The notes under the pieces are model-generated. The model saw only the letters and a list, made by a program, of their open reading frames with translations. It ran no database searches and was not told the DNA's origin. A program made the translations under genes and the position numbers. Shown one piece after another: positions 5,276 through 47,280 of a stretch of 64,000 bases of DNA (positions are counted from its first letter, which is position 1; every line of letters begins with the position of its first letter). This stretch comes from Candidatus Doudnabacteria bacterium (GTDB lineage: Bacteria > Patescibacteriota > Doudnabacteria > UBA920 > VMFF01): positions 453,358-517,357 of the forward strand of contig JAQBQP010000002.1 of assembly GCA_028286905.1 (NCBI GenBank), written 5' to 3'.

Positions 5276-7786
5276 TTATAACCCTTTTTCAACCGCGGCA
5301 GGGCCTGCAGACATGAATTCAGCCACCTGGCTGCTCTCTAACAAATTTGCTTCCACTTCTTGGCGTGAGCGGCCAAACTTTAAACGTGAAAGCTGTCGAA
5401 TAGCATTAGCGATCTCTTTAGAGCCTCCTGCAGGTGGTGGTAAGGTTCCAATATTAAAAGGCTTTGATGCAGTGCCTTTTACCATTAATTTTACGTACGC
5501 ATTAAAACGATCGATGTTAACCAAATCAAACTCATTAAAGACTGGGGCAAATTCTTTAGCCATAACTTCGGCATCTTCAACTCCAATACGGAAAGCTATT
5601 TCAGTACCGACGTTTCCGAACACCGCATCGCGAACATCTTTGCTACCTGCACCAGCCGCTCCCGCGCCTTGTTCCAATTGTCCTAAATATTGGTGGGCAA
5701 TAATTAAGTTCAAGTGATATTTTCGGGCTTCTGAAAGAATTGATGAGAAAGCATCTGTAATAAAGTTTTGGAATTCGTCGACATACAGATAAAAATCTTT
5801 ACGATCATCTTCATTTGGAATATCTGTTCTAGAAAGCGCGGCCATCTGTAATTTAGAAACGATCATTAAACCTAAAAGCTTGGCATTAATTTCGCCGGTT
5901 TTGCCTTTTGCCAAATTTACCAACAAAATCTTTTTATTATCCATGACATCACGGAAGTCAAAACCGGATTTTGATTGACCAATAATATTACGGATCATTG
6001 AATTTTCCACAAATCTTCCCACTTTTGAAATTAAATAGCCAAGCATTTCGGATTTATGAAAATCGGAAGTCTTTGCCATTTCTTTTTCCCAATAATTTCG
6101 AACAACTAGGTCCTTAACCTTGGAAACTTTATATTTTTGGAATTCCACATCGGTAAAAATTCTTGGAATATCTGCAATTGTCCCTGGGTGCTCATCATCT
6201 GCCATTAAAGTCAGCATCGCGTTACGCATGTTGTGTTCGAACATCGGACCAAGCATTGCTGGATCTGTCACTAACTTATAGAAAATTGAAATCATCTCCT
6301 GAACAGCAAAATCTTTTTGTTCTTCGCTTTTTACTTCCAGAATATTCAAACCCATCGGTCGGTCCAGATCAAACGGCTCAAAAAGAATTACATCTTCAGC
6401 GCGCTCTTTCGGAATATGCGGCAAAATATGTTCGATCAAATCACCATGCGGGTCAACCACACAAACGCCTTCGCCGTTAATGATGTCCTGGATTACCATG
6501 TTTTCCATCAAAACTGATTTACCCGAACCAGTACGGCCAATAATGTACATATGTTTGCCGCGGTCTTCTCTGGCAATTTTTATTTCGGTTTTAACATTGC
6601 GGAAATTATTTATTCCCAACAAAGTTCCTTCGGTAGCCAGGTTTGTAGGTGCCGGCGCTTTTTTGGATAGCAGCCATTTAATATTTGGCGTTTCAACAAA
6701 CGGTGTTGGCAAATGCCAAATACTTGCCAACTCTTCAGTATTTAAAATAGTTTCTTTACCGTAATCATTAAAAACACGGAAAATGTAATCCAATAAAATG
6801 CTTTTATCGTTGCGCTTTTTAACTTTGAAACCATTAAAAGGCGGCATCGAATATTGCATGAAAGAGGATAGCAGGTTGCGCATATGCAAATCGGCGCTAG
6901 TCATATCCGTAGCAGAAGTAATAATTCGAAGATTAGTTTTGAAGCCCGGCCTGCTGGCCTTTTCTTCTAAGCGCTTAACGATATCCTGCTGCATCGGCGT
7001 TAAATTTATCGGACTATGTTGGCCCGTTAAATCTTTGTGGTCGTGAGACTTGGATTTATTTGAAGAAGAAAAAATATCATGAATCGCACGGGCAAATACA
7101 CCCTTCTCTACTAATGAAGGGTTTTTGCCTTGCTGAATTTCTAAAGCCATATGCCTTGGCTTACTTTGCCAGGAACTACCCGCCGGACTAACAATAAGCT
7201 GAATAACCGCGCCTTCATTTTGATCCATCTTAGACATTGCACTGGTAATCGCATTTAAAGGATCCGATTCCATTAGCTTGTAGGTGCGAAATGGATAAAC
7301 ATAATTCTTTTGTAAGACTAATTCTGCGGTAGACTGAACTGTTTTTGGCGCGAAGGGGTTGTAACCATGTACTTTCTCAATTTGAGCTTCCGGATATTGG
7401 CCATGCACTTGCTTTTCAATTAAGTCCTTAAGCTCGTTTGAGCAGTTAATATAAAAAGAAATTTTCTTATCAACAGCTGCTATTTCGAAAGAAATGTAAT
7501 CATGGTGGCTAAAAAAGCCTTCTTTTCTGCCAGCTTCTGCTAAAGTGGTATAAATTTGTTCAGCAACAGCAATCATCTGCTTCTGATGTTCTTGATCTCG
7601 GTTTTTATCACCTTCTGCGATTTGTTTTGGTACTTGAATTTCAAAAAATACCGAAGTTTTCAAACGTGGCATTACTAATTTAGAAAACTTCCGATGACGT
7701 TTCCAATAATGCCAAACGACAATAAAAAACCCTACAACCGCAATTGCAAGGATTAAATATAAGATTAAAAGTGTAGTTGAGTTCAT
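5276..7786 (-). CDS. T4SS coupling-protein-like ATPase (TraD/VirD4/TraG-family; membrane-anchored)
   Basis: N-terminal TM helix. Walker A GRTGSGKS. A long AAA/HerA-FtsK-like ATPase body, 836 aa. Confidence 0.55.
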   Translation of the reverse strand: MNSTTLLILYLILAIAVVGFFIVVWHYWKRHRKFSKLVMPRLKTSVFFEIQVPKQIAEGDKNRDQEHQKQMIAVAEQIYTTLAEAGRKEGFFSHHDYISFEIAAVDKKISFYINCSNELKDLIEKQVHGQYPEAQIEKVHGYNPFAPKTVQSTAELVLQKNYVYPFRTYKLMESDPLNAITSAMSKMDQNEGAVIQLIVSPAGSSWQSKPRHMALEIQQGKNPSLVEKGVFARAIHDIFSSSNKSKSHDHKDLTGQHSPINLTPMQQDIVKRLEEKASRPGFKTNLRIITSATDMTSADLHMRNLLSSFMQYSMPPFNGFKVKKRNDKSILLDYIFRVFNDYGKETILNTEELASIWHLPTPFVETPNIKWLLSKKAPAPTNLATEGTLLGINNFRNVKTEIKIAREDRGKHMYIIGRTGSGKSVLMENMVIQDIINGEGVCVVDPHGDLIEHILPHIPKERAEDVILFEPFDLDRPMGLNILEVKSEEQKDFAVQEMISIFYKLVTDPAMLGPMFEHNMRNAMLTLMADDEHPGTIADIPRIFTDVEFQKYKVSKVKDLVVRNYWEKEMAKTSDFHKSEMLGYLISKVGRFVENSMIRNIIGQSKSGFDFRDVMDNKKILLVNLAKGKTGEINAKLLGLMIVSKLQMAALSRTDIPNEDDRKDFYLYVDEFQNFITDAFSSILSEARKYHLNLIIAHQYLGQLEQGAGAAGAGSKDVRDAVFGNVGTEIAFRIGVEDAEVMAKEFAPVFNEFDLVNIDRFNAYVKLMVKGTASKPFNIGTLPPPAGGSKEIANAIRQLSRLKFGRSRQEVEANLLESSQVAEFMSAGPAAVEKGL

Positions 7787-30972: not shown

Positions 30973-32652
30973 TTAGCTGTTCTTTTTGATTAACATTCTT
31001 GCAATCTTCAACTGTTCGTAAGTGTATCGCCCTTTTAGCTTAGCGAAGATTGGAGTTAGCTTATCTTCTTTTGTTTCTCTAAATATAGTGTGAATTTCTG
31101 GAAGCGCTCGCTCCAATTCTGGCGAAAGTAATCTGGATAAATCTTTTTGATTAATTTTTTGTTCCTCTAACAACTCTTCTAGGTGTCCTAAAATAGTTGT
31201 TTGTTTTAGGTTTCTAGCAACGCAAATTTGTTCCAGAGTCTTGCCTTCTTTCCACAACGTCAGCGTTTCTAAGGCAGTATCGCCTTTTTCTTTTTTCTTT
31301 GGCTCTTGCACTTCGTGGGCATCAACTGTGCCACCAATACTGCTGAGATATTTTCGCTGAATCTTTATCAGGTCCTCAGGAGTTAGTGCGCTGAAGTTTT
31401 TTTGTGCTTCTTTTGAAGCGGATTTAAAATTACTGTCTTCCTGTAAAATTTCCGGGTGCACTTGGAAAGCTTTTTCATTTATTCCAAATAAGTGCAGTCC
31501 GGAAAGCCTGCGCACTCTGGAGATTGCAACATAGCCTTGGCCGTATTCAAAAACATCGCTTAAGTCGATTGCTGCTGCATCCATGCTCATACCTTGGCTT
31601 TTGTGAATTGTGATCGCCCACGCTAAGCGCAACGGCAGCTGACTAACCATCGCTCTAAGTTTGCCGCCTTCTTCCGATTTCCAATCTTGAGGAGTAACTA
31701 CAACTCTTTTACCGCCACGAATTTCAACCAGTGGGAAACCTTCGCTAAGATCCCGAACCACGCCAAGGGTGCCGTTGGCATAGCCGGCTTGAGGATTGTT
31801 CTTAGTAAACATTACCACTGCGCCAACCTTTAAATAAAGCTGTTCTGGCGAGAGACAGCCTTTTTTAAGCGTATCTACCAAAGAGCTGCGCCCGGTGTTA
31901 GTCATTACATAAAGGCGGTGCTCGCCAGGAAGCTTTTGCAGCCGTTCATCGTTTAATTTATCTACAGAAACATTTCGAGTAAACAATCGCGGAATCTGGA
32001 TTGGCGTTACAGCTCTTTGTACAATTCGAGATTGAATCGATTCAAAATGCTCTTCTTCTAATTCATTCCGGCGAATTGCTGCAAGCATATTTAAAAAAAC
32101 CGGATCGTCTTGGCGGTGCTGCTCAGTTAAGTAACAAACGGTCGGATTCGCACGTTGCCATGCTGGAGAGTTATATGCAAATTGCTTATGCGGACTTTCT
32201 AAAGTAGCTTGTTTTAGAATTGGCGGCAGTTGAAAAAAATCACCAACAAAAACCACTTGCATCCCGCCAAAAGGTTCTTGAATTTTTCGAACCGATCTAC
32301 AAACTGCATCCACCATTGAAAGTGTTCGCTGAGAGAGCATTGAAATTTCATCGATAATCAAAACTTGGGCTCGCAAAATTCTTTTGGCAAATTTTGGATC
32401 AGCAGCGAGCTTATGCAAATCTGAAGAAGTTAAATCTTCTTTTATTCCAATGCCGCTCCAAGAGTGAATAGTCATTCCGCCGATATGAGTTGCAGCAATA
32501 CCGGTAGAGGCTGTTACTGCCGGTTCAATGCTATGCTCGCGCAAGTAGCGCACAAATTTATTGATCGTATGAGTTTTGCCAGAACCCGGCTCCCCTGTTA
32601 AAAAAACGTTTGCGCCGGATTTCAAAATGTCTAAAGCTTGCTGTTGAGTCAT
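30973..32652 (-). CDS. PIF1/RecD-like superfamily-1 helicase
   Basis: Walker A LTGEPGSGKTH. Walker B/DExx-like LIIDEISM. A C-terminal HTH-like tail. Start moved to MTQQQALDIL, because the track's N-terminal extension runs into a foreign GC-rich segment with no stop. Confidence 0.7.
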   Translation of the reverse strand: MTQQQALDILKSGANVFLTGEPGSGKTHTINKFVRYLREHSIEPAVTASTGIAATHIGGMTIHSWSGIGIKEDLTSSDLHKLAADPKFAKRILRAQVLIIDEISMLSQRTLSMVDAVCRSVRKIQEPFGGMQVVFVGDFFQLPPILKQATLESPHKQFAYNSPAWQRANPTVCYLTEQHRQDDPVFLNMLAAIRRNELEEEHFESIQSRIVQRAVTPIQIPRLFTRNVSVDKLNDERLQKLPGEHRLYVMTNTGRSSLVDTLKKGCLSPEQLYLKVGAVVMFTKNNPQAGYANGTLGVVRDLSEGFPLVEIRGGKRVVVTPQDWKSEEGGKLRAMVSQLPLRLAWAITIHKSQGMSMDAAAIDLSDVFEYGQGYVAISRVRRLSGLHLFGINEKAFQVHPEILQEDSNFKSASKEAQKNFSALTPEDLIKIQRKYLSSIGGTVDAHEVQEPKKKEKGDTALETLTLWKEGKTLEQICVARNLKQTTILGHLEELLEEQKINQKDLSRLLSPELERALPEIHTIFRETKEDKLTPIFAKLKGRYTYEQLKIARMLIKKNS

Positions 32653-32659
32653 GGAATGA

Positions 32660-32738
32660 GCATAACAAAAAAACTTTCGATCGGCGAGGTGAACGAAAAA
32701 ATACACCGGCGATACTCTCCTTTCGGATTTCTCGCCGG
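32660..32738 (-). promoter_or_regulatory. terminator hairpin plus TTTTTTTGTTATGCT motif 6 nt before the helicase ATG
   Basis: Hairpin CCGGCGA...TCGCCGG with T-run, then the TTTTTTTGTTATGCT motif, a 6-nt spacer (CATTCC) and the ATG. Confidence 0.45.
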
Positions 32739-32759
32739 TTACAGCTTCTGGCCGAGGCT

Positions 32760-33278
32760 CTACCAGCGCTTCTGCGCCAGCGTTACCATCAGGACTGTGA
32801 ATGCGATGCCCAGCAGAATGCAGCCGGACGCGATGTTTGCGAACCGTTCGGCGCCGAGCAGAACCATCTGTCCGTGGCACTCATAGAGCATCCAGAGCAG
32901 GCCGCTGGCTGCGAAGATGTCCACGAAGAACATCAGCTTCCGCGACCGCAGCTTCGCCTTGGCGGTTTCCCAGCCCGACTGCTGCTGTTCACCCTCGACG
33001 CTTCGGATGTACGCCGCGATTCGATGGATCGAATAGTCGCCGCGCGCGATCCAGAAGACCATCGTCATTCCGAGCGCGTAGACGAACTTGTACAGCGCAA
33101 CGTTCAGGGTCATCTCAGCAGCGATGAAGCTGAGGAACATGCTGAACGCCAGCAGGAACACTCCGTTGATCATCAGCTTATCTTGCTCGATGATCTCCTT
33201 GCGGAGCTTCTTATTTTCCGCAGCATTCTGCTTCAGTGCCCGCATCTTCTCGTCAACATCCTCGAACATGGGCCTCAC
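32760..33278 (-). CDS. hypothetical membrane protein on a GC-rich insert
   Basis: A roughly 520-bp segment that is strikingly GC-rich relative to its flanks. It has its own TTGACA-17-TATTTT promoter and RBS upstream, and a hairpin with T-run downstream. Confidence 0.5.
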   Translation of the reverse strand: MRPMFEDVDEKMRALKQNAAENKKLRKEIIEQDKLMINGVFLLAFSMFLSFIAAEMTLNVALYKFVYALGMTMVFWIARGDYSIHRIAAYIRSVEGEQQQSGWETAKAKLRSRKLMFFVDIFAASGLLWMLYECHGQMVLLGAERFANIASGCILLGIAFTVLMVTLAQKRW

Positions 33279-33346
33279 TTTTATACCCTCTTGTTGAATT
33301 GTGGACTATTTTATGAACAATCACAAAATACCATATTTAATGACAT

Positions 33347-33964
33347 TTGTCAAAGGTATCCTTCTTACAATTGATAATATATAATAAAAACATGCATAAA
33401 AAAGCTACTTTTGATGAAATATTTAATATTTGGCTTGATTCCGAAGCCAATCAAATTGAGGGCAGAAATATCTTGCCCGTAGCTAAAGCTAAGGGTTTTA
33501 ACTCAGTTGCAGAGTGGCGCCTATCCACTGCTTTAAGATTGGGTATGGATACCAAAATCTGGTCCTTGGAAATAATAGAAAACCCAAACGAAACGCTGCC
33601 TAATATTATTATTGGCCCATATCAAGGATGGTCAAAGTTTTTTAATAACCAATTGCAAACTAGTTTTGCAGAAGCGCTAAAATATAAAGAGTTCTCGGAA
33701 TGGTGCAAAACTCACGATCGGATCATTCCAATATCAAATAATTTTCCATTACCCACGACGATTATTTTATTTCGCAAGCCAAATGGCGATTTGATGCATA
33801 TTGAAGGCGGCCATCGAATTTGTGCAGTAGCATATAAAAAATCAATTGGTTCACCAATTGATTTTGAAAACAAACCAAGCATTACCGCAGCAATCGCAAA
33901 TGTAACTGATTCAGAAATTGCACAGATGCTAATTTTTTTGAAAGAAGGAACTTTTAAAATCTAG
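33347..33964 (+). CDS. hypothetical protein (205 aa)
   Basis: ORF track. It has an IEGGHRICA motif of unknown meaning. Confidence 0.4.
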   Translation: MSKVSFLQLIIYNKNMHKKATFDEIFNIWLDSEANQIEGRNILPVAKAKGFNSVAEWRLSTALRLGMDTKIWSLEIIENPNETLPNIIIGPYQGWSKFFNNQLQTSFAEALKYKEFSEWCKTHDRIIPISNNFPLPTTIILFRKPNGDLMHIEGGHRICAVAYKKSIGSPIDFENKPSITAAIANVTDSEIAQMLIFLKEGTFKI

Positions 33965-37655: not shown

Positions 37656-38510
37656 CTAAATCGTATATTCCAATATTTCTTTGCCTTCCAGCAAAGAACT
37701 CAAATCAAACCTTCTACTTTCCTTCAATTCTTTTGGTTCCCCTGAAAGATCACCCGGCTCAACAAACACAGCAAGTTTTCTGTTACGAGAAAACTCAGGT
37801 CCATTTTTAAAATCTTGCTGCCCTTCAGGGTCAACGCCTTCTAATATTCTTTGAACTAAATTAGGATTAGAAAATAATAAGCCTTTTTCTCGATCTGTTC
37901 CGATTAATGCAAGAATAAGGTTCTTAGGCAAAGCAAGTTCGTAAGTCATATTATTCCTTCTCTTCACTGAATCCCGAAAAGACGCCCGCCTAATTATAAT
38001 CATATTAAAAAATGAATTTCCCATTCCAGGATTTATATCTTCATATTTAACGGGGACTACGGCCTTTTCATAACTAATATCATCGACCATCTCCCTCTTT
38101 TCTTTCCCAAACAATCCCTTAGCAGGTATAATCTTTTCTCGCCTATTAGAGACGCTTCTTTGTACGCTCTGGCGAGCAGCGCCAATATATAAAAGTTCTG
38201 CTTCTTTTTCGTCTACTCCTGGAATTATAGGAGGTTCGTCCATGCGAACATTATTTACAACACGTAATTTTGAGAACGATAATACTTTATACACATCATT
38301 AATTAACCTAGTGCATGAATACGGATACTTTCCGGTTTTAATCCCTTCTACTATATCATTAACAATTCCTTTTTCGTTAAATTCTGGAGTAGTTGAAAGT
38401 AACTCTTGAGCTTGCTGATAAGTATGATCTGGAACATCTCCAGCATTAATATTTTTCAGCATTTTTTGAGACTCTTCCCAAGCTTCTTCGGAGCTATATC
38501 TTTCGGGCAT
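37656..38510 (-). CDS. hypothetical protein (284 aa)
   Basis: ORF track. Low GC. Confidence 0.4.
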   Translation of the reverse strand: MPERYSSEEAWEESQKMLKNINAGDVPDHTYQQAQELLSTTPEFNEKGIVNDIVEGIKTGKYPYSCTRLINDVYKVLSFSKLRVVNNVRMDEPPIIPGVDEKEAELLYIGAARQSVQRSVSNRREKIIPAKGLFGKEKREMVDDISYEKAVVPVKYEDINPGMGNSFFNMIIIRRASFRDSVKRRNNMTYELALPKNLILALIGTDREKGLLFSNPNLVQRILEGVDPEGQQDFKNGPEFSRNRKLAVFVEPGDLSGEPKELKESRRFDLSSLLEGKEILEYTI

Positions 38511-38599
38511 AGTATATTTTTAATTAACATTAGCATATCAAAAAATCATCACAATTACGAATAATGAATTCTTGGCGCCGCTATAAGGACTATTAAAAA

Positions 38600-38650
38600 A
38601 AACAGAGGTGATAAAACTAAAAGCGCGGGACCAAGATGTTTGTCCGCGCT
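38600..38650 (-). terminator. rho-independent terminator after the 38671-39099 gene
   Basis: CAGCGCGGACAAACATCTTGGTCCCGCGCTTTT. Confidence 0.5.
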
Positions 38651-38670
38651 GTTTATTTTGTGGCTTCCTC

Positions 38671-39099
38671 CTACATAATGATTCCGCAGTACCCCGTGCT
38701 CGTACCCTCCAGCCACTCCAATCGATAAAGCGGATGGCTCAAAATGAGCTTACCGCTCTCCCTCTCGAAACGGAAAGGGCAGAAACTCAGCTGTTCAACT
38801 GGCCCCCATGTCCCATCCGGATTGAGGCGCTGCACCGGGAAAGTTACATCCTTCTTCGCTATGGAATCCTGGGCCGTCTTCACATCCGGCGACTGGATCA
38901 ACCGATACCAACGATCCTTCGAGCCCCTTGCAACCACTTCTTCGAAAAGATTCATGGGCCAGGGCTTCGAACTATAAAAAGCTCTGCCGCCGCTTGCTTC
39001 ATCAACGACGATGGGATCGACAAGCGGAGCTTCGCAGTTTGCTACCGCGCCCTTCTTCCGATTCCGATACCAGTTGCTAAAGAACAGTAGGACCCGCAT
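38671..39099 (-). CDS. hypothetical protein on a GC-rich insert
   Basis: GC-rich. RBS AAGGGGG before the ATG. A clean rho-independent terminator follows at about 38600-38650. Confidence 0.45.
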   Translation of the reverse strand: MRVLLFFSNWYRNRKKGAVANCEAPLVDPIVVDEASGGRAFYSSKPWPMNLFEEVVARGSKDRWYRLIQSPDVKTAQDSIAKKDVTFPVQRLNPDGTWGPVEQLSFCPFRFERESGKLILSHPLYRLEWLEGTSTGYCGIIM

Positions 39100-39162
39100 A
39101 TTACCCCCTTAGTTGAACCCAAGTGAGAGATAAATAAAATTACCATGGGTAATGGGAATTGT

Positions 39163-39196
39163 CAAAAGCCCACCTCAATTACAAAGTGGGCTTTTG
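39163..39196. repeat. degenerate copy 0 (hairpin only)
   Basis: CAAAAGCCCACCTCAATTACAAAGTGGGCTTTTG has the same CTCAATTAC loop as copies 1 and 2. Confidence 0.4.
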
Positions 39197-39288
39197 ACAC
39201 GAGTTGTACAGAAAAACTATCCACAAAACACCATATAAAATGATGCGCTCTGGGTAGACGCTCTCGAAGTTTCGAGAGCGCACCGAAT

Positions 39289-39615
39289 TCACGAGATCTT
39301 GAAATATTGATGCCATAACGCCTCTCCTTCCTGATCCAGTGGCAGTCGCAGAATCAGCGGTGGATGATTCCCTGGCAGGATGGTTTCGTCCATGACCAGG
39401 TGTCCGTTTTCCAGATAGAAGCGCCGGGCAACGATCGTACTCTGAACGACCAGAACTCTGGTATGGCGATCCACTATCGCCTGCTTGCTTTCGCCGTGAT
39501 ACACCACGGAGTAGTGCTCTTTCTGGGCGGCGTCCCAAGCCAATGCCCCCAAAACAAATGCGTGCAAGGTCAGAACCAAGAACGCGGCACAGAGTTCTTT
39601 GCAAATCATTTTCAT
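39289..39615 (-). CDS. small secreted protein on a GC-rich insert
   Basis: Signal peptide MKMICKELCAAFLVLTLHAFVLGALA. GC-rich. A strong hairpin follows downstream at about 39245-39280. Confidence 0.4.
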   Translation of the reverse strand: MKMICKELCAAFLVLTLHAFVLGALAWDAAQKEHYSVVYHGESKQAIVDRHTRVLVVQSTIVARRFYLENGHLVMDETILPGNHPPLILRLPLDQEGEALWHQYFKIS

Positions 39616-39720
39616 CTTCAGCTCCAGATCAACGTGATTTAGAATCCTCCTCGAAACCGACCCAATTGCCGGATTAAATAAAATACCACGATTAGTGGTA
39701 TTCGTCAAAGAATTGGAAAA

Positions 39721-40452
39721 TTACCGCTGCCCTTTAAACAAAGCAACGTGAAATCCAAAATCTTTCCCATACTCACCAATAAATATTGGCACGTAAATTA
39801 AATCTAAAGAAAGTCCTAGCTTCTTTTTATCAGATTTATTAAACGCTTTAAAATTAGTCAGTTTTTGGATATCTACATTAGCCCGAGCCAAATCTTTTTT
39901 ATAGAACGTTTTCCCGGTAAATTCAAAAAGATCTGCTAATCCATTTTGAGTCGGAAATGGCAATTCGAGCGCGCTTAACTTTTCCATTATATATTTTACC
40001 GTATATATTTTTGAATTTCTTTCTAATTCGATAGAAAAAAAGTTATCAGGATTAAAACTTGATACGGAACCCTTTCTTGGCATAATAAGAACTTTATTTA
40101 GTTTAAAATATTTAGCTAAATTTATATGTGCTTTATTAGGTTTGGTCACAATAATTCCGCAGTCGTTACTCTTACTTTTGGTATTATGGAACTCTATAAT
40201 AAAACCTGATTTCTTAAATGTCTTTTTTAGAGATTTCGCCAATTTATGCTCGTAGGTTTTGCCTGGCAAATCAAAATTCCTGTTAAGATCTGCTTCGATG
40301 AATCTTAAATTCTTCTCTACAGCTTTCGGATTTGCGATTAAAGCTTCTAAATTTTTATATTCTTTCCTTTGAAGGCTTTTCACTACAGACACGCCGGTCT
40401 TTTCATTACCATGAGTTCCGCCAAGTATCAAGATTTTATTTTCTATTTTCAT
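39721..40452 (-). CDS. succinylglutamate desuccinylase/aspartoacylase-family zinc hydrolase
   Basis: The GGTHGNE motif is the GxHGNE zinc-binding hallmark of the AstE/AspA family. Start set to MKIENKIL.... Confidence 0.6.
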   Translation of the reverse strand: MKIENKILILGGTHGNEKTGVSVVKSLQRKEYKNLEALIANPKAVEKNLRFIEADLNRNFDLPGKTYEHKLAKSLKKTFKKSGFIIEFHNTKSKSNDCGIIVTKPNKAHINLAKYFKLNKVLIMPRKGSVSSFNPDNFFSIELERNSKIYTVKYIMEKLSALELPFPTQNGLADLFEFTGKTFYKKDLARANVDIQKLTNFKAFNKSDKKKLGLSLDLIYVPIFIGEYGKDFGFHVALFKGQR

Positions 40453-40459
40453 AGCAAAA

Positions 40460-40530
40460 GCATAACAAAAAACCACCTCAATTACGAGGTGGGCTTTTGG
40501 CAGGGATTGAGGGAGCAAGTTAGAATAATA
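40460..40530 (-). repeat. cassette-boundary repeat, copy 1 (full)
   Basis: GCATAACAAAAAA, then hairpin CCACCTCAATTACGAGGTGG, then GCTTTTGGCAGGGATTGAGGGAGCAAGTTAGAAT. Confidence 0.6.
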
Positions 40531-40624
40531 TTAACAAATAAGTGCCGTTGACTTTTACCACAAAACATCATAAAATATCATATTCCTGGCGAACGCCTTG
40601 AACACACTCCAACGGAGGCAACAA

Positions 40625-40981
40625 ATGAAGATGCATATGCCGCGTCTCACCACGATTCTTTCCACCCTTCTCCTGACGGGTTGCGCGGGTTTCTCACGTT
40701 CCTGCTCTTCGTGGAATGCGAGAAACTTCGCAAGCGACTGGGTCGTCGTGCAGTACAAGTTCGACGGATCACCCATCAACTGCTGGACTCTCAAGGGCAC
40801 CAGCGTTTCGAACGAGGGAGGGTCTGACGGCATCTACTGGAAGGACGGGACAAGCGGCCATCTGGTTCACATCTCGGGATGGTACAACCGAGTCCAGGTC
40901 GCCAACAACCAGTTCGCGCAAGCCGCGACGCTGATGGGGGTAGACGCAAGCAAGTGCGCAAACGGCAAATACCAACCGTAA
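40625..40981 (+). CDS. lipoprotein on a GC-rich insert
   Basis: Lipobox LLLTGC. RBS GGAGG. Its own TTGACT-17-TAAAAT promoter sits at about 40548-40576. A terminator follows at about 40990-41040. Confidence 0.5.
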   Translation: MKMHMPRLTTILSTLLLTGCAGFSRSCSSWNARNFASDWVVVQYKFDGSPINCWTLKGTSVSNEGGSDGIYWKDGTSGHLVHISGWYNRVQVANNQFAQAATLMGVDASKCANGKYQP

Positions 40982-41091
40982 CGTTTGTGCCGAGCACCAA
41001 AACCACCAGGTTCTTATTGAGCCTGGTGGTGTTTTATTTAAAATAAGCGATGTGGGTTGCTAGAAGAAGTTAGAACTTCAATTGAATATTC

Positions 41092-41544
41092 CTAGTTTTT
41101 GAGTTCCTCGGCCAATCCAATAAGAATTCCTTCGGGCCCACGAATATAACAAAGCCTATAAGAATTCTCATATTGAACCACATCGCCTACGAGTTGGGCG
41201 CCTAACTTTTTAAGCCGTTCAACCAGCTCATCAATGTCACTTACAGTGAACATTGCTCTCAAATAACCAAGAGCATTCACTGGAGCATTTCGATGGTCGG
41301 CAATGACAGGAGGAGTAAAAAAACGCGAAAGCTCAATTCGACTGTGGTTGTCGGGTGTGACCATCATCGCTACCTCAACGTTCTGGTCACCTAATCCAGT
41401 AACACGTCCCGCCCACTCTCCTTCTACAATAGCGCGACCTTCAAGCTTTAAACCAAGCTCGGTAAAAAAAGAAATAACTTCATCGAGGGATTCCACAACG
41501 ATGCCGATGTTGTCCATGCGTAGCACTTTACTTTTTTCTGTCAT
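41092..41544 (-). CDS. VOC-family (glyoxalase/bleomycin-resistance fold) protein
   Basis: Paired beta-alpha-beta-beta-beta modules, 150 aa. Confidence 0.6.
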   Translation of the reverse strand: MTEKSKVLRMDNIGIVVESLDEVISFFTELGLKLEGRAIVEGEWAGRVTGLGDQNVEVAMMVTPDNHSRIELSRFFTPPVIADHRNAPVNALGYLRAMFTVSDIDELVERLKKLGAQLVGDVVQYENSYRLCYIRGPEGILIGLAEELKN

Positions 41545-41582
41545 TTTATTCCGTTATTATTTTAACTGTTGATACCTAAAAA

Positions 41583-41655
41583 GCATAACAAAAAACCAGC
41601 TCCATTACGAGGTGGCTTTGGCACGGGCTATGGGAGCAAGTTGGAACTAGAATTG
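41583..41655 (-). repeat. cassette-boundary repeat, copy 2 (full)
   Basis: GCATAACAAAAAA, then hairpin CCAGCTCCATTACGAGGTGG, then CTTTGGCACGGGCTATGGGAGCAAGTTGGAAC. Confidence 0.6.
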
Positions 41656-41689
41656 CTCAAAAAAACCACCAAATTTAGACAGTTATTTT

Positions 41690-42310
41690 TTACAACAGGA
41701 TTAGAATAAGAGCTATGATCGCCATTCCGAAATCCTCAATAAGCGTTACGTAGGTAAGTGGGACTTTGAGAAACGTTCCTAAACAAGCGCACATAAAAGG
41801 TTCTCGCCTTGCAAACTTAATCGCGACTCCTAATCCGCTAAAAACCATTACAACAAATTCCGCCCACAACAGCCACATCGAATGCAATCCTGATAACATA
41901 GCAAAACCAAAACCTAATTCGATGAACGGATATATGTACCCATATCCGAACCACTTTTTAGCCAAAAGATCATAGGTAGAATAACCTTCAGCAAAACCTT
42001 TTACGTCCATCAATTTAAATCCACCGAAGACTAAAAAGAATCCAGTCATAAAATTCAGAAGAAAACCTGTCAAAGAAATTCGTCCGTTCCAAGCAGTAAT
42101 TACCGAAGCAATAAATATCAGAAGAATGATCACTATCAAAGGTTGATAACTTTTCCAAGTGATCACACCTAAACCTTGTTCAGAGGTTGTGTGCGCCATT
42201 GGTTTGATCTGATCCTTTAAGACAAGCGTCATTCCACATTTTGGACAGCGGCCTAGTTGATCTGAAACAATATCAAGGTGCATCGGGCAAGTATAAATTT
42301 GATTATCCAT
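41690..42310 (-). CDS. membrane protein with N-terminal heavy-metal-binding zinc-ribbon (CPxH...CPxCGM) and DoxX/MauE-like TM domain
   Basis: CPMHLDIVSDQLGRCPKCGMTL matches the HMBD/YHS-like metal-binding ribbon. Four or five TM helices follow. Confidence 0.5.
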   Translation of the reverse strand: MDNQIYTCPMHLDIVSDQLGRCPKCGMTLVLKDQIKPMAHTTSEQGLGVITWKSYQPLIVIILLIFIASVITAWNGRISLTGFLLNFMTGFFLVFGGFKLMDVKGFAEGYSTYDLLAKKWFGYGYIYPFIELGFGFAMLSGLHSMWLLWAEFVVMVFSGLGVAIKFARREPFMCACLGTFLKVPLTYVTLIEDFGMAIIALILILL

Positions 42311-42390
42311 AATTTTGACCTTTCTTAATAAAGTTTCATTATTTCAACAAAATTTTCTTATCATAAGACGATTATACCATACACTAAAAT

Positions 42391-42422
42391 TACGGGCTGT
42401 GGGAGCAAGTTAGAACTGAAAT
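42391..42422 (-). repeat. cassette-boundary repeat, copy 3 (truncated; no hairpin)
   Basis: TACGGGCTGTGGGAGCAAGTTAGAACTGAAAT. Confidence 0.5.
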
Positions 42423-42440
42423 AAGACAAGAATGCTCGTT

Positions 42441-43631
42441 TTAATGCGGATGGTTATGCAGTGGTTTATCGTTTGGGTCGTGCTTCATCCGAGTCAAAAA
42501 AGTCACAGCCAACACAGTCGATATCGGAACTGCAAGTATTAAAGAGATACTTCCTACCAAAGTCCTAACTATTTCTTCCATCACGAACTCGCTATTCAAA
42601 GTAACCCACAATGGTTGAGCCGTATTTAAAACAAATAGCAAAAAAAGCGGTAACGAAGCGCCGGCATATGCAAGCACCAATGTATTCACCAAAGAAGCTA
42701 TGTGCTCTTTCCCGACAGATATACCACCTTGGTATAATCTCTTCTTTTCGATTTGCGGATGCACTTTACGTATTTCATCAACAGAAGCCACTTGGCTTGT
42801 GGTAACATCATCCAGTACTCCCAGAGTTCCAATAATTATTCCACTTAAAAGTAACCCCTGAAGATTTAAAACACTTCCATAGCCTGCTTGGAGATAATAC
42901 GCTTCTTCCGAGCCAAGCCCAAATAACTTTGCTAAGTGCACAAAAAGTGCAGCCATCCCAATTGAAATTACCAATGTTATCAAAGTACTTAAAACAGCAA
43001 TGCTAATACGCTTATTAAAACCATGTGCTAAATAAATAGAACCAACAGATATTACGATGGAGCCGATTAGGGTTACCAATAACGGATTACTGCCATGCAA
43101 GATGGATGGAACTATGAATTTTAATAAAATAAAGATTGTGAAAACTAAACCTAGAATTGATGTGAAGCCACGTAATCTGCCAAAGAAAATAACTACTGCT
43201 AAAAATATTACGATCATTATGCCCAATGCTGGCAAACGATATCTGTCGACAACCGCATATTCGGTTTGTCCTTGATTCATATTTTTAGTTACAACAACTA
43301 TTTCGCCTTTAACAAGCCATTGTTTATACGTATCTGGATTTTCATTAATTCGATAATTAATGACTTTATCTTTTTCTGGACCGTCTAAAATTTGTAGTTT
43401 AGAATCTTGCTCTCGGGCAGGGATCGTCTGACTGCTGTGGGTTATTTCGCTGTTCCATCGCTCATCTTTAGTTATTTCAAGAACTTTGGCCTTTTGAAAA
43501 CTTTGTGGCACTACTGCTCCGGGCTCTACCACCTCTAAGGGAATATTGCCAACACTTTGATTGTCTTGTGCTTTGGACAATAAAGGCACTGAGGATAAAA
43601 GTATACAGATAATTAAAAACAGTTTTTTCAT
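42441..43631 (-). CDS. YibE/F-like polytopic membrane protein
   Basis: Signal peptide, then an extracellular N-domain, then seven to eight TM helices. Confidence 0.45.
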   Translation of the reverse strand: MKKLFLIICILLSSVPLLSKAQDNQSVGNIPLEVVEPGAVVPQSFQKAKVLEITKDERWNSEITHSSQTIPAREQDSKLQILDGPEKDKVINYRINENPDTYKQWLVKGEIVVVTKNMNQGQTEYAVVDRYRLPALGIMIVIFLAVVIFFGRLRGFTSILGLVFTIFILLKFIVPSILHGSNPLLVTLIGSIVISVGSIYLAHGFNKRISIAVLSTLITLVISIGMAALFVHLAKLFGLGSEEAYYLQAGYGSVLNLQGLLLSGIIIGTLGVLDDVTTSQVASVDEIRKVHPQIEKKRLYQGGISVGKEHIASLVNTLVLAYAGASLPLFLLFVLNTAQPLWVTLNSEFVMEEIVRTLVGSISLILAVPISTVLAVTFLTRMKHDPNDKPLHNHPH

Positions 43632-43710
43632 ATATTAGGATTATAGCAATAAAATACTGTAAGCCCCCAAGATATAACACTCAGGGGCTCACAAGTGATC
43701 AGTCTGACGA

Positions 43711-44103
43711 TCAGCAATCTGCCGAAGCCAAAGCGCCGTTCTGAAGCTGAATCTGCTCCAACGGCGACATCGCCAGTAGCTCGCGGGTTGGCGCTGCCAC
43801 AGAACCGCAGCAGTTGTAGAGACCGAAAGCGACGCCGAACTCAGCTTCGCAGATACTGCGAGCGATATCCGTTCCAAGCAGACGGGTGATCTGCTTACCC
43901 AACGCTGTGTTCGGGTCCTGAGGATCCAGGATCTTCGCAGCAGACGCCTTCGTCCTTGCTGCGAGCTCGCCCAGATAAGCGACGCCGAGCGGCAGGTCAC
44001 GCTGAAACGCTTCGAAGAGTGCGCTACGCATCTGACCCTCACTTGCGGTATCCAAATCAACACCGCGCTCGTCCAGCACAGACACGATCGACTGATAAGA
44101 CAT
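43711..44103 (-). CDS. hypothetical protein on a GC-rich insert
   Basis: GC-rich. RBS GGAGGA. It lies 64 nt downstream of the CooC-like gene on the same strand. Confidence 0.45.
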   Translation of the reverse strand: MSYQSIVSVLDERGVDLDTASEGQMRSALFEAFQRDLPLGVAYLGELAARTKASAAKILDPQDPNTALGKQITRLLGTDIARSICEAEFGVAFGLYNCCGSVAAPTRELLAMSPLEQIQLQNGALASADC

Positions 44104-44167
44104 ACATCCTCCGATGATATTCTGAGTACCAGGGCCAAACAGAATGTTTGGAACTGGTTACAAAATA

Positions 44168-45103
44168 TCAATCTCTCAAAACAAAATCTGGGTCGACTTG
44201 TTTTCGCAAATCCTTACCAATAGAAACATTTCCCCAACTTTCCGAATTCTTTATATGAAACTCTACTGTCTGTCTGTAAAACTTCGTCCAATCTTTTTTT
44301 GACTCTCCTACTATTTGGATTAATTTTTTCAGCGCCTGGATATTTTGCTCCTCCAGAAAATTAATCGATATAACCTCTCCTCTTTCTGAATTTTTAACGA
44401 AATCAGATTGGCCAAAATAAACCAACAAGTCTTCACCTAGTTTGTTTTGCAAAAATTGTAAGTCTGAATTATCAGAAATTTTATTTCCAATTGCGACAAC
44501 CTTTACATCGTAATCTTTCGCAAACTTTTTATACTGTTCAAATACTGATACTGATTTTAAGGTAGGCTCAACGACAACAAAAGTAATATCGAATTTTGTA
44601 AACATACCGGAAGCAAAGGTGTCCGCACCCGCGGTCATATCCACGACAACATATTCATCTTCTCTGTCCAACATATGGTTTAACAATAATTCCACTGCGC
44701 CCACTTTGGAGTGATAACATTTAACTCCCAAGTCCTCTTCGCTAAACTCACCGACAGCCATAAATCTTAAGCTACCAGCTGAAATAGAAAACTTTTCAAA
44801 TAGTGGGTTCGTTTCTTTTAACCTTAATAAATTAGATCCTGCGCCAGGTGGGGAAGTTTTTATCATTTCTGAGGCTGATTCTATTCGGGGATTAGAACCT
44901 CTTAAGTACTCCTTTATCTCTGGAAGATACGTACCCAAAGACAAGACTTCAATTAATGGCAACCCTAAAGATCCTTTCATGTGCTGATTAATGTCGGCCT
45001 CAATTGCAAGGACAGGACAATTATTCTGTTGTAAGTATCGGCAGAAAAGTGTGCTGGTAGTGGTTTTCCCACTACCGCCTTTCCCCACAAAAGCTATTTT
45101 CAT
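44168..45103 (-). CDS. CooC/MinD-family P-loop ATPase (metallochaperone-like)
   Basis: Deviant Walker A KIAFVGKGGSGKTT. VVDMTAGADTFASG resembles the CooC switch region. Start set to MKIAFVG.... Confidence 0.55.
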   Translation of the reverse strand: MKIAFVGKGGSGKTTTSTLFCRYLQQNNCPVLAIEADINQHMKGSLGLPLIEVLSLGTYLPEIKEYLRGSNPRIESASEMIKTSPPGAGSNLLRLKETNPLFEKFSISAGSLRFMAVGEFSEEDLGVKCYHSKVGAVELLLNHMLDREDEYVVVDMTAGADTFASGMFTKFDITFVVVEPTLKSVSVFEQYKKFAKDYDVKVVAIGNKISDNSDLQFLQNKLGEDLLVYFGQSDFVKNSERGEVISINFLEEQNIQALKKLIQIVGESKKDWTKFYRQTVEFHIKNSESWGNVSIGKDLRKQVDPDFVLRD

Positions 45104-45166
45104 AAATGCAAATGATTTGCATTTACTATATACGAGGTCAGGAACAAATGCAAGTGACTTGCATTT
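45104..45166. promoter_or_regulatory. two 21-bp perfect palindromes (AAATGCAAATGATTTGCATTT and AAATGCAAGTGACTTGCATTT) in the divergent promoter
   Basis: Read directly in the 84-bp intergenic region between the CooC-like and Fur-family genes. Positions are within about 2 nt. Confidence 0.5.
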
Positions 45167-45187
45167 AGCTAAACTTTGTGCCATACT

Positions 45188-45595
45188 ATGATTATGGAAA
45201 ACAAAGAGCTGGTAAAATCTTACGGCTTAAAAGCAACCCCCACTCGCCTTTCAGTATTAGCGGCGCTACAGAAATATTCAAAACCTGTGAGTGTATTTGA
45301 TATATTAAAAAACTTGAACAAAAATACTGATCAAACCACAGTATACCGAATACTAAATGTATTCGTTGAGAAAGGTATGATAAAAAAAATTGACCTAAAA
45401 AAAGATTTTTCATTTTTTGAAATCAATGAAGGAAAACACCATCACCATTTGGTGTGTCAAAGTTGTTCCAAAATAAAAGAGATTGAATCTTGCGATATCT
45501 CTGCCATAGAGAAACAAGTGTTAAAAAAAAGTGGTTTCAAAAGTATTGATGAGCATGCTTTAGAGTTTTACGGACTTTGCGAAAACTGCGCATAA
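45188..45595 (+). CDS. Fur-family metalloregulator
   Basis: wHTH plus a metal-site region HHHHLVCQSC...C. The track ORF starts at a TTG; MIMENKEL is the likelier start. Confidence 0.7.
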   Translation: MIMENKELVKSYGLKATPTRLSVLAALQKYSKPVSVFDILKNLNKNTDQTTVYRILNVFVEKGMIKKIDLKKDFSFFEINEGKHHHHLVCQSCSKIKEIESCDISAIEKQVLKKSGFKSIDEHALEFYGLCENCA

Positions 45596-45615
45596 AATTT
45601 TTATAATAGACTATC

Positions 45616-45681
45616 AAAAAATCTCCACCCTATTCGGGTGGAGATTTTTTGGCACGGGCTGTGGGAGGTTAGAACTGAAAT
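45616..45681 (-). repeat. cassette-boundary repeat, copy 4
   Basis: Hairpin AAAAAATCTCCACCCTATTCGGGTGGAGATTTTTT, then GGCACGGGCTGTGGGAGGTTAGAACTGAAAT. Confidence 0.55.
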
Positions 45682-45726
45682 GACAAAACAAAACGGAAAG
45701 GTGCCTTTTGACAGCTGTAATTAAAT

Positions 45727-46155
45727 ATGTCATTGTGTGACATTGGCATTCACCCTCTTACCTTTATTTCCATGCCTAGCAGAGAAGAACTAGCGGCACA
45801 GGTGATATGGAACAGCGGTGGTTCCGGTCTCGGTATTTGCCGAGTCGCTAACGCCCTGATACGGGCGATGGACCGGCCGGGACCTAACAATCCCGACTAC
45901 CCTTCCATCGTAGCTGTGTCCGATCCACCAGAGAAGTACACGGACGAGGAACTGACGCTGATCGTAGAATTCGCTCAACGTGCAACGGCCAAACACGACG
46001 AGATGTTTCGCTTCCGTCGTGGCGCAAACCTCATACTGTTCGACAAGGAGGAGTGGAACGGAAGAACTGTGTGGATGCGAAAGCGTCTAACATGGGAGTA
46101 CGGTCCGATGTTCTCACCGACGTTAGTGGAAGCAATTGCGTCCATGGATCGGTAA
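45727..46155 (+). CDS. hypothetical protein on a GC-rich insert
   Basis: GC-rich, 142 aa. Confidence 0.45.
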   Translation: MSLCDIGIHPLTFISMPSREELAAQVIWNSGGSGLGICRVANALIRAMDRPGPNNPDYPSIVAVSDPPEKYTDEELTLIVEFAQRATAKHDEMFRFRRGANLILFDKEEWNGRTVWMRKRLTWEYGPMFSPTLVEAIASMDR

Positions 46156-46270
46156 AACCACAAATCACAGGAGGCTGTAGTTCACGTCATTCTTGGCGTG
46201 AGGTCCCGGGGAACAATAGCATGTTCCCCTTTCCTCTAAGCTCATCAATACTGGTGATCTTAGAGAAAAT

Positions 46271-46330
46271 AACCCCCCTCGAAAGGGTGTTTTTTGATAC
46301 GGGCTATGGGAGCAAGTTGGAACCGAAATA
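46271..46330 (-). repeat. cassette-boundary repeat, copy 5
   Basis: Plus-strand read: hairpin, then GATACGGGCTATGGGAGCAAGTTGGAACCGAAAT. It sits between convergent genes. Confidence 0.55.
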
Positions 46331-46331
46331 A

Positions 46332-47015
46332 CTAAATACCCTGTCGCTTTACTGCTTTAAGTATAAAAAAGCCTGGGTATTTTTTTCCATCAATTTGTTC
46401 CGCTGATGGGTCCCATTGTTCGTCAAATAATTGAACATCGAAATTTTTAAAAAGAAAGTCGTTTAAGTACTCGTTCATGGTATGGGAAGGTTCCTTTACT
46501 AGAATAGTATTGTTCAAAATATTGGAATCAACGATTTGTTGCTCAAAATAATCTGCTGTATTATCTTTCTTTTCAAAGTATTGTCTAAATGGATGCGTTA
46601 CCAAATACATCATTACTCCGCCAGGTTTCAACACTCTGTGTACTTCTTTAAAAACTGGTTTCAGGTCAGAAGAAGTCATAATTGCATATTTGGAAAGTAC
46701 AACATCAAAAAAGTTTTCCTCAAAAGGGAGACTTTCAAAAAGACCTGTTCTAATGTCAGCGTCAGGCATTCTGGATTGGGCTAAAGCTACCATTTCTTTG
46801 GATGCATCAATTCCGTATACCGCAGCCCCCAATTCTTTATAGTAAAGTAAATCTAGACCATCGCCACAAGCCACATCCAGTAATTTCATTCCAGGCTTAA
46901 CAAAATCTAAATAACTATAAAACAACTTCCTGTTTAAATTATTACTGTTTTCACCGGTGTCATGAACCTCGGAAAACTTCTTAGCAAAATTATTATATTG
47001 TGTAGATAATTCCAT
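46332..47015 (-). CDS. class I SAM-dependent methyltransferase
   Basis: Motif I LLDVACGDGLD. Start set to MELSTQYNN..., 6 nt after the GTTATGCT motif. Confidence 0.7.
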   Translation of the reverse strand: MELSTQYNNFAKKFSEVHDTGENSNNLNRKLFYSYLDFVKPGMKLLDVACGDGLDLLYYKELGAAVYGIDASKEMVALAQSRMPDADIRTGLFESLPFEENFFDVVLSKYAIMTSSDLKPVFKEVHRVLKPGGVMMYLVTHPFRQYFEKKDNTADYFEQQIVDSNILNNTILVKEPSHTMNEYLNDFLFKNFDVQLFDEQWDPSAEQIDGKKYPGFFILKAVKRQGI

Positions 47016-47022
47016 AACCCTA

Positions 47023-47077
47023 GCATAACAAAAAATCCCCACTACGACGAGTGAGGAGTTTTTGGCACGGGGCTTGC
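47023..47077 (-). repeat. cassette-boundary repeat, copy A (nearest tRNA-Trp)
   Basis: Minus-sense read: GCAAGCCCCGTGCCAAAA, then a hairpin, then TTTTTTGTTATGCT. The segment GCCCCGTGCCAAAAA is identical to the tRNA-Trp 3' end plus flank. Confidence 0.6.
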
Positions 47078-47206
47078 AGCTCCTTACAGTCGCTGCATTC
47101 CCTCTTCGTTTTGCTAACGCAAAACAAATCAAAGAAGGTCAGGAATCGAGTCGTATTCCATAGCTACCAAATCAAAAATACTCCATCCTGATGGATGGAG
47201 TATTTT

Positions 47207-47280
47207 TGGCACGGGGCGTAGGAATCGAACCTACGTAAGCGGTTTTGGAGACCGCCGTAATACCACTATACGAGCCCCGC
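47207..47280 (-). tRNA. tRNA-Trp (anticodon CCA), CCA end encoded
   Basis: Hand-folded cloverleaf. Acceptor GCGGGGC/GCCCCGT. Anticodon stem GCGGT/ACCGC with loop CTCCAAA. T-arm GTAGG-TTCGATT-CCTAC. A terminator hairpin follows the 3' end. Confidence 0.8.

Follow-up and report, generated by a model that had tools for sequence, protein, structure and literature searches.

The stretch of DNA analysed here, a 64-kb window on a 540-kb contig of a metagenome-assembled genome of Candidatus Doudnabacteria (Candidate Phyla Radiation, CPR/Patescibacteria), carries a gene for a Fur-family metalloregulator that is divergent from the genes for a CooC-like P-loop ATPase and a small protein of the SCO5389/PF20704 family. 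We demonstrate that the Fur gene, the ATPase, its small partner and the operator-type site form a module that is conserved across phyla. The module is a real, conserved and uncharacterised variant of the arrangement of a metalloregulator plus a nucleoside triphosphatase (NTPase) chaperone. On balance, we favour the reading that this would be a self-regulated metal-starvation module, in which a Fur-family repressor, probably Zur-like, controls an ATPase/metallochaperone pair. We infer the identity of the metal from genomic context, and it is most probably zinc. The principal features are located as follows.

45188-45595, + strand: Fur-family metalloregulator of 133-135 amino acids (PF01475, E = 1.8e-28)
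45146-45166: putative operator 2, a perfect 8-5-8 palindrome, AAATGCAA-GTGAC-TTGCATTT, 21 nt 5' of the Fur-gene ATG
45104-45124: putative operator 1, a perfect 8-5-8 palindrome, AAATGCAA-ATGAT-TTGCATTT, abutting the ATPase start codon (sequence and equivalents elsewhere)
44168-45103, - strand: CooC-like MinD/ParA-class P-loop ATPase of 311 amino acids (sequence, profile and fold matches)
43711-44103, - strand: SCO5389/PF20704-family small protein of 130 amino acids (Pfam and iterative search)
43657-43694, - strand: intrinsic-terminator-like hairpin with a T-run that closes the ATPase/SCO5389-like operon (terminator scan)
42441-43631, - strand: YibE/F-family membrane protein of 396 amino acids (PF07907, E = 7e-73)

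The twin palindromes and the regulator

With the ATG at 45188 taken as the start of the Fur gene, the gap to the ATPase gene measures 84 bp; the ATG at 45194 is an equally possible start. An earlier first-pass annotation of this DNA had described two palindromes in this divergent gap, and both are present and perfect: AAATGCAAATGATTTGCATTT at 45104-45124 and AAATGCAAGTGACTTGCATTT at 45146-45166, inverted repeats of 21 bp each with 8-5-8 architecture. They are separated by 21 bp (42 bp from centre to centre) and fill 42 of the 84 bp. It is also correct that the first palindrome adjoins the ATPase start codon, which reads CAT on the + strand (45101-45103), so that position 45104 directly follows 45103. 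We place the ATPase start at 45103 because the 40+ homologues in our alignment all start with MKIAFVGKGGSGKT. The public annotation (P0001) begins the ATPase at 45184, 27 codons further 5', which yields a protein of 338 amino acids and has both palindromes translated; this start is almost certainly an annotation error. Operator 1 would therefore fall where transcription of the ATPase operon starts, or within its 5' leader.

By comparative evidence the palindromes appear to behave as Fur-family operators, because independent loci, whose ATPases are only 55-61% identical, carry the same sites at equivalent places in the promoter. The consensus across loci is TGCRA-N5-TYGCA, or in extended form AAWYGCRA-N5-TYGCRWTT, with a free centre. 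Four divergent loci (L087, L089, L091 and L167) have two operator-type sites each that flank the promoter zone, one of them abutting the ATPase ATG or lying at most 10 nt from it; in L087 the site AAACGCAA-TAGAT-TTGCGTTT directly adjoins this ATG. Where fur comes first (L004, L092 and L141), a single site is placed exactly between the -35 (TTGACA) and -10 elements, and L160, L102, L169 and L171 also have one site each. These equivalents support the earlier reading of the palindromes as operators. A motif search for further copies, which had been proposed along with it, was run on the 64-kb window with AAATGCAA-N5-TTGCATTT and up to two mismatches. It returned the two known sites only (0.11 expected from shuffles) and no further copy in the window. 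A loose GCAA-N5-TTGC at 28235 looks like chance. As had also been pointed out, the half-site is unlike the classical Fur box, the operator having no GATAAT repeats.

The assignment of the regulator to the Fur family holds as well: it matches PF01475 with 99.5 bits (cutoff 23.1) over profile positions 3-121 of 121, which gives full coverage of the winged-helix and dimerisation parts. It has a VYR recognition helix, an HHHH motif followed by C-x2-C, and a C-terminal C-x2-C, and H82-85, C88, C91, H121, C129 and C132 are present; a set of 17 module-linked homologues shows no variation at Y51, R52, H83-85, C88, C91, H121, C129 and C132. Sequence was uninformative with regard to the Fur subfamily, whether we used NCBIfam, where no equivalog reaches its cutoff for the regulator, phmmer against the PDB, or a profile of window-type regulators. 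Among PDB entries Francisella Fur scored best (82 bits), the Fur-annotated 8j6w reached 68 bits, Bacillus subtilis PerR ranked in the middle (60 bits) and Streptomyces coelicolor Nur (3eyy) was 18th of 25 Fur-family structures (43 bits). A mixed regulator profile favoured Zur only through its actinobacterial Zur members. The window-type regulator lacks the Cys five residues before HHHH that is present in the Zur-type proteins of L060, L062 and L166, and its Fur site 2 has retained Glu. It appears to be without the Asp of what we take to be Zur site 2, and, aligned with the ligands that we presume for PerR, it has Glu and not Asp at site 2.

The ATPase, its partner and their conserved neighbourhood

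The ATPase has the deviant Walker A motif GKGGSGKT, and the KGGSGKTT named in the first-pass annotation is thus found in it. The same annotation had called the protein CooC-like, and sequence, profile and fold all return CooC1 as the best PDB match. With phmmer, CooC1 (3kje) was matched at 3e-11 over residues 1-243. A profile of 42 family sequences raised this to 8e-21, followed by ArsA at 2e-8 in the P-loop only. Foldseek with the AlphaFold2 (AF2) model (predicted local distance difference test, pLDDT, 91.7) placed CooC1 first (3e-12), ahead of MinD, NifH, FlhG, ParA and ATPase-type HypB. Pfam and NCBIfam reach the P-loop only. The proposed check against hidden Markov models of ParA and MinD gave 21 bits for ParA_partition (cutoff 180) and 21-25 bits for MinD (cutoffs >200), and these matches cover about 35 residues of the P-loop. 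With P-loop-only matches on this side and CooC1 clearly closest, we rejected a ParA partition ATPase.

CooC1 of Carboxydothermus hydrogenoformans is the ATPase for nickel insertion into CO dehydrogenase (CODH), and the window ATPase shares its deviant Walker A and its switch II (DMxAG). The metal motif C-x-C of CooC1 is located at the dimer interface. In the alignment, GSQCYC of CooC1 stands opposite DLGVKCYH of the window ATPase, and at the same position C-x-C is replaced by C129-Y130-H131, which is invariant in 42 family sequences. Also invariant in the family are ADINQ, DMTAG.D.F.SG, NK and a C-terminal extension absent from CooC, a helical domain of about 70 amino acids (KDW...FH.KN..W). 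Again unlike CooC1, the window ATPase is paired with a PF20704 protein and not with CooT or CooJ. No cooS or acs gene was seen among the annotated neighbours in the window or in related loci, in which not every open reading frame (ORF) is annotated. Because it has neither the C-x-C motif nor a cooS/acs linkage, we regard the ATPase as CooC-like but not as a true CooC. The family is present in aerobes such as Streptomyces; therefore, CODH maturation is not its job.

With more than 6,900 clusters at 90% identity (E <= 1e-5) and 245 clusters at 50% identity (E <= 1e-30) the ATPase family is large, and its members are named merely 'ATP-binding protein' or 'CO dehydrogenase maturation factor'. Membership in the COG0523/G3E GTPases was rejected, as the ATPase belongs to the MinD class and no CobW-family model matches it, although it may act similarly. 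PADLOC defence models matched neither the ATPase nor its partner. Our literature searches returned nothing on the ATPase family, on the function of SCO5389 or on YibE/F; SCO5389 is mentioned in one proteomics table, with a two-fold rise of the protein in Streptomyces tsukubaensis (PMC7602649).

The partner is encoded by the GC-rich ORF for which the first-pass annotation had suggested co-transcription with the ATPase. The layout agrees with this suggestion: the ORF is a conserved neighbour, the terminator scan found no terminator between the ATPase stop (44168) and the partner start (44103), and a strong terminator follows. By hmmscan the 130-amino-acid ORF scores 25 bits with PF20704, just below the cutoff of 27. 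The precomputed Pfam entry for the identical protein P0121 is PF20704, an iterative search from the PF20704-annotated homologue of L004 reaches the ORF at E = 6e-26, and relatives annotated as PF20704 are 50-65% identical to it. In the window protein the motifs are N97-C98-C99 and a C-terminal D129-C130. Among 49 ATPase-linked partners, 36 have N-C-H and 11 have N-C-C, and 47 of the 49 end in (D/N)-C. Their conservation gives these residues the look of a Cys/His metal site, one ligand of which, at the C terminus, would be mobile. The AF2 model (pLDDT 93.9) is least confident in the last residues, and its fold has no match in the PDB below E = 1.

The partner gene has 58% GC as compared to 33-38% in its neighbours, and a GC content at third codon positions (GC3) of 0.64 as compared to 0.30-0.35 in the neighbours and about 0.33 in the genome. 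In L086, L087, L092, L141, L089 and L102, GC3 of the partner is also above that of the adjacent ATPase gene, by +0.13 to +0.38. The excess is limited to the coding region and to the N-C-C subfamily, and the partner of the syntenic relative L167 is native-looking (GC3 0.32). This pattern suggests either biased gene conversion or that alleles from donors of higher GC have repeatedly replaced this one gene. Between the ATPase stop and the partner gene, at 44128-44160, there is a possible degenerate copy, with full-copy spacing, of the boundary repeats treated below (CAGGGC-N12-TTGGAACT), which could be the edge of a replaced segment.

The neighbourhood recurs in several layouts. L167 shows the full window arrangement, with fur divergent from the ATPase, PF20704 and YibE/F genes, and fur is also divergent in L087, L089, L091, L102 and L160. 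In L004/L005 and on the P0007 contig, fur, ATPase and PF20704 genes follow each other in one direction, and the PF20704 gene comes directly after the ATPase in L086, too. In L169, L170 and L171 the divergent neighbour of fur is the PF20704 gene alone; L169 and L171 carry the same operator site. Of the 62 non-Streptomyces loci that have 500 bp or more on each side, 36 have an adjacent partner gene and 14 an adjacent Fur gene; for the 21 loci of low GC, the figures are 17 and 11. The Streptomyces family members are chromosomal and single-copy, without a Fur gene or palindromes. In Streptomyces species (L001-L003 and L006-L085), a strongly conserved GGAGTGGTCTTCTTCAC element is found about 60 nt 5' of the ATPase.

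A YibE/F gene is adjacent in nine loci (L089, L091, L095, L102, L128, L132, L167, L168 and the P0007 contig), and a ZnuA-type protein is encoded beside the module in eight; no locus has both. Because the module has either a ZnuA-type protein or YibE/F and never both, YibE/F would be an alternative transporter, and this distribution suggests that it may serve as the metal transporter of the module. In L102 the fur and yibE/F genes overlap as one operon, and the window YibE/F ends in a His-rich tail (KHDPNDKPLHNHPH).

The metal and the rival explanations

The preference for zinc comes from the ZnuA-type neighbours, from actinobacterial loci and from the operators. In Dactylosporangium (L062) the ATPase and partner genes are followed by a luciferase-like gene and by Zur-ZnuA-ZnuC-ZnuB, and the Fur-family protein encoded there is a true Zur orthologue (3.7e-48 with S. 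coelicolor Zur). In Micromonospora (L060) the ATPase/partner pair is convergent with a Zur-type gene; loci of these two types have the same pair beside true Zur. Five loci of high GC (L060, L137, L158, L161 and L163) have the exact Zur-box core TGnnAAnnnTTnnCA at 38-130 nt 5' of the ATPase, and near-exact cores are found in L100, in L166 and 5' of the partner in L060. Chance matches are estimated at about 1e-6 per position at high-GC composition, and 78 Streptomyces loci (about 0.87 Mb) contained no exact match. Chromatin immunoprecipitation on arrays (ChIP-chip) with S. coelicolor Zur gave a strong intergenic peak of 3.85 located 24 bp 5' of SCO3560, an 'ATP-binding protein'; its distance to SCO3559, which is divergent, is 79 bp. 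The peak exceeds those at rpmG/rpmB and rpmF and is not discussed in the source paper (PMC5472717, Supplementary Table 1). SCO3560 is very probably the Streptomyces member of the ATPase family because the gene order of Streptomyces matches, with the ATPase gene 102 bp from a divergent gene for 286 amino acids and just past genes for a HAD-IB hydrolase and Ssd/tad.

The actinobacterial Zur box has been given as taaTGaNAANNNTTNtCANta / tGaNNatSatNNtCa (PMC5472717). Operator 1 fits its core at 10/10 conserved positions of the published consensus and operator 2 at 8/10, the inner A/T pair being replaced by G and C. Actinobacterial Zur also shares HHHH-x2-C-x2-C with the window regulator, and twin boxes over one promoter occur both in the window and at S. 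coelicolor znuA under Zur.

Several observations speak against zinc or against the proposed control. The published Nur and Zur boxes differ chiefly at half-site position 3, which is C in Nur and a weak A in Zur, and the window operators have C at this position, as in the Nur box. A profile of the seven closest module-linked regulators scored 92 bits with Fur, 88 with PerR and 79 with Mycobacterium tuberculosis Zur and, judged by sequence comparison, the window-type regulator does not appear to be an orthologue of any characterised Zur. In the ZnuA-like proteins of low-GC loci, Glu occupies two of the ligand positions, and these proteins remain far below every NCBIfam cutoff, so that Mn or Fe are possible; those of L171, L014 and L094 show the His-His-Glu-Glu pattern typical of Mn/Fe binders. 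No canonical Zur box was found 5' of the ATPase in 74 Streptomyces species, and the basis for placing SCO3560 in the family is synteny alone. No client enzyme was identified, and a consensus promoter scan returned no sigma-70-like promoter in the 84-bp gap; hand-read -35/-10 candidates there match the -35 element at 3/6 positions at most and are not relied on. The 64-kb window contains no znuABC.

Nickel (or cobalt) is a live rival to zinc through the half-site C and the resemblance to CooC and UreG. The architecture would be the same, with a Nur-like regulator and a CooC/UreG-like chaperone pair for a nickel enzyme such as glyoxalase I or, elsewhere, nickel superoxide dismutase. A Cys-x-His motif is the type of interface metal site that UreG uses as Cys-Pro-His for nickel, and the nearest solved relative of the ATPase is the nickel-insertion ATPase CooC1. 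A glyoxalase-family gene (41092-41544) is located 2.6 kb away. The Nur box of S. coelicolor, tTGCaa-N5-ttGCAA, has 6-5-6 architecture with a non-conserved central 5 bp (PMC2691836). The window operators match it at 10/12 positions, and their core TGCAA-N5-TTGCA is identical, including the free 5-bp centre. As the window regulator would be, Nur is a Fur-family repressor over promoters with conserved operator ends. However, the window regulator is not a Nur orthologue, 3eyy reaching 43 bits as compared to 82 bits for the best Fur-family match, and the Nur targets sodF and nik transporters are not linked here. No Nik, NiCoT or nickel enzyme is linked in about 90 loci, the recurrent neighbours are ZnuA-type proteins, and Actinobacteria have genuine Zur with Zur boxes. 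We therefore rate nickel as an unlikely, though serious, explanation. An iron or manganese module of the Fur or Mur type, in which the ATPase dimer bridges an Fe-S cluster or Fe/Mn like Mrp/NBP35 or NifH, would agree with the best PDB scores of the regulator, which are with true Fur, with its retained Fur site-2 Glu, with the His-His-Glu-Glu proteins of L171, L014 and L094, and with NifH and Cfd1 among the structural neighbours of the ATPase. One conserved Cys per ATPase monomer is too few for a NifH-type 4Fe-4S cluster, though, genes for siderophores, Feo, Suf or Isc are not linked, the operator lacks the GATAAT repeats of a Fur box, and the actinobacterial members occur in Zur and not in Fur contexts, so we consider iron or manganese to be quite improbable.

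A peroxide- or thiol-stress module, with a PerR-like sensor and the Cys-containing small protein and ATPase acting in redox repair, appears far less probable still. The regulator has the Glu in place of the presumed PerR site-2 Asp, none of the loci has a linked gene for catalase, peroxiredoxin or thioredoxin, and metal transporters are the recurrent neighbours; what it would explain are the mid-rank PerR match, the cysteines as invariant residues of the partner, and the two-fold SCO5389 rise, which was seen in a redox-linked proteome (PMC7602649). The least probable reading, which we regard as very remote, is partition or positioning by a ParA/MinD-type ATPase, with the palindromes as centromere-like sites and the Fur-like or the small protein as adaptor. 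The deviant Walker A is indeed that of the MinD/ParA class, and MinD, FlhG and plasmid ParA are structural neighbours at E of about 1e-8. In type Ib par loci, upstream repeats typically serve as operators, too. Yet ParA/MinD models cover just the P-loop and stay far under their cutoffs, whereas the match to CooC1, clearly the best, spans 243 residues; nothing like a ParB, ParG or MinE gene was identified, the Streptomyces family, as described, is chromosomal and single-copy with neither Fur gene nor palindromes, and the ATPase has an invariant Cys/His motif of metal type.

For the metal-starvation module that we favour, the following course is conceivable. With plentiful metal, metal-loaded Fur-family dimers would bind both palindromes, one dimer each, and would silence both the regulator gene and the ATPase/SCO5389-like operon, which amounts to autoregulation; any promoter in the gap would be occluded because the palindromes cover half of it. 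When metal is short, the repressor would leave and the ATPase and its partner would be expressed. The ATPase would dimerise on ATP like CooC, UreG or HypB, joining two C129-x-H131 motifs into a shared Cys2His2 interface metal site, with which the N-C-C motif and the flexible Asp-Cys tail of the partner could exchange metal. The metal would be provided by YibE/F or, in other lineages, by ZnuABC. The same logic of a nucleotide-dependent dimer with a Cys/His interface site and an adjacent small metal-binding partner is known from UreG-UreE and HypB-HypA; unlike in these systems, the predicted fold of the partner is unrelated and unmatched in the PDB, and there is no urease or hydrogenase that could be the client.

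If the metal is zinc, the regulator would work as Zur and the ATPase pair would be a functional analogue of the Zur-regulated COG0523 GTPases (YciC/ZagA, ZigA, Zng1). These are also P-loop NTPases with a Cys-based metal motif, controlled by a zinc-type repressor of the Fur family, and the module resembles them in its position by znuABC or behind Zur boxes and in its presumed role, metal allocation in starvation. In contrast to them, the window ATPase is of the MinD/CooC and not the G3E class, has neither GCxCC nor the CobW C-terminal domain, and comes with an obligatory small partner. More tentatively, and with somewhat less confidence than in the metal-starvation reading, one could see here a third, so far unrecognised class of nucleotide-dependent metallochaperone alongside G3E GTPases and canonical CooC. 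It would be made up of a C-x-H MinD/CooC ATPase, an Asp-Cys partner and, in many lineages, a YibE/F importer, and would belong to Zur-type zinc-starvation regulons from CPR to Actinobacteria, the SCO3560 peak included.

Boundary repeats, mobility and wider meaning

Beyond the genes described so far, three features mark the borders of the unit.

42389-42416, + strand: left boundary repeat ATTACGGGCTGTGGGAGCAAGTTAGAAC (3 matches in the window, 0 expected)
45615-45651: perfect 16-bp-stem hairpin between A6 and T6, the bidirectional-terminator-like end of the Fur gene
45651-45675, + strand: right boundary repeat GGCACGGGCTGTGGGAG-GTTAGAAC

The unit at 42.4-45.7 kb is thus bounded by repeats in the same orientation, further copies of which are found at about 40.5, 41.6, 46.3 and 47.05 kb. 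Each repeat consists of a terminator hairpin and then GGCACGGGCTRTGGGAGCAAGTTRGAAC. The hairpin at 45615-45651 (DNA fold -18.9 kcal/mol, z -7.3) is also the left part of the right repeat. In its hairpin-TTTTTGGCACGGG part the repeat can be aligned to tRNA-Trp (47207-47280, - strand), both to the terminator and, in reverse complement, to the 3' end; in the right repeat, the first 9-13 nt are a reverse-complement copy of this 3' end. The whole array, at about 38500-47280 and in the same orientation, ends at tRNA-Trp. Its repeats separate small units of disparate GC: a glyoxalase gene, a fusion of a heavy-metal-binding domain with MauE, the Fur module, a GC-rich orphan ORF and a methyltransferase gene. 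The array looks like what serial site-specific insertion at tRNA-Trp would leave behind.

The first-pass annotation had regarded the module as a mobile cassette. The flanking repeats are real. No integrase was found in 30-49 kb of the window and no recombinase within 17 kb of the module, and the boundary repeats are absent from 171 related loci and from the viral contigs scanned; the order of Fur, ATPase, partner and YibE/F genes with a nearby MauE gene is syntenic in L167, which has no repeats. Mobility is plausible and is also suggested by the patchy spread of the module across phyla. Integron cassettes with attC sites were rejected, as the repeats fold only as a terminator hairpin plus a 28-nt unpaired box, there is no integrase in 30-49 kb, and the genes lie in both orientations.

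Several further observations concern the surroundings. The fusion membrane protein of a heavy-metal-binding domain and MauE (41690-42310) is encoded beside the module with a boundary repeat in between, and a MauE gene is near the module in L167 as well (6771-7325). In Ktedonobacter racemifer (L014; 572-1732, 7650-9533) the Fur, ZnuA-like, ATPase and partner genes are located between a phage-type integrase gene and a CopC-CopD-YtkA gene, and this copper-resistance-gene/integrase setting looks like a metal island. The GC-rich ORF of 142 amino acids at 45727-46155 (GC3 0.58), between two boundary repeats, has no match in Pfam, NCBIfam or PADLOC. At the opposite end of the variable region is a PIF1-type helicase that has HTH_40 as its C-terminal domain (30973-32880), followed by GC-rich ORFs without a family match (32610-33964).

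To our knowledge, the allocation of scarce zinc has been explained almost wholly via COG0523 GTPases, the clients of which are mostly unknown. If our reading is true, the module would be a second NTPase system for zinc allocation, structurally unrelated to COG0523 and under similar control. It would also give first functions to the CooC-like 'ATP-binding protein', probably including SCO3560, to SCO5389/PF20704 and to YibE/F (PF07907). The operator, the Cys/His motifs and tractable hosts such as Streptomyces and Micromonospora make the module directly testable. We know of almost no defined pairs of transcription factor and operator in CPR bacteria, and the module offers a regulatory handle in these organisms.

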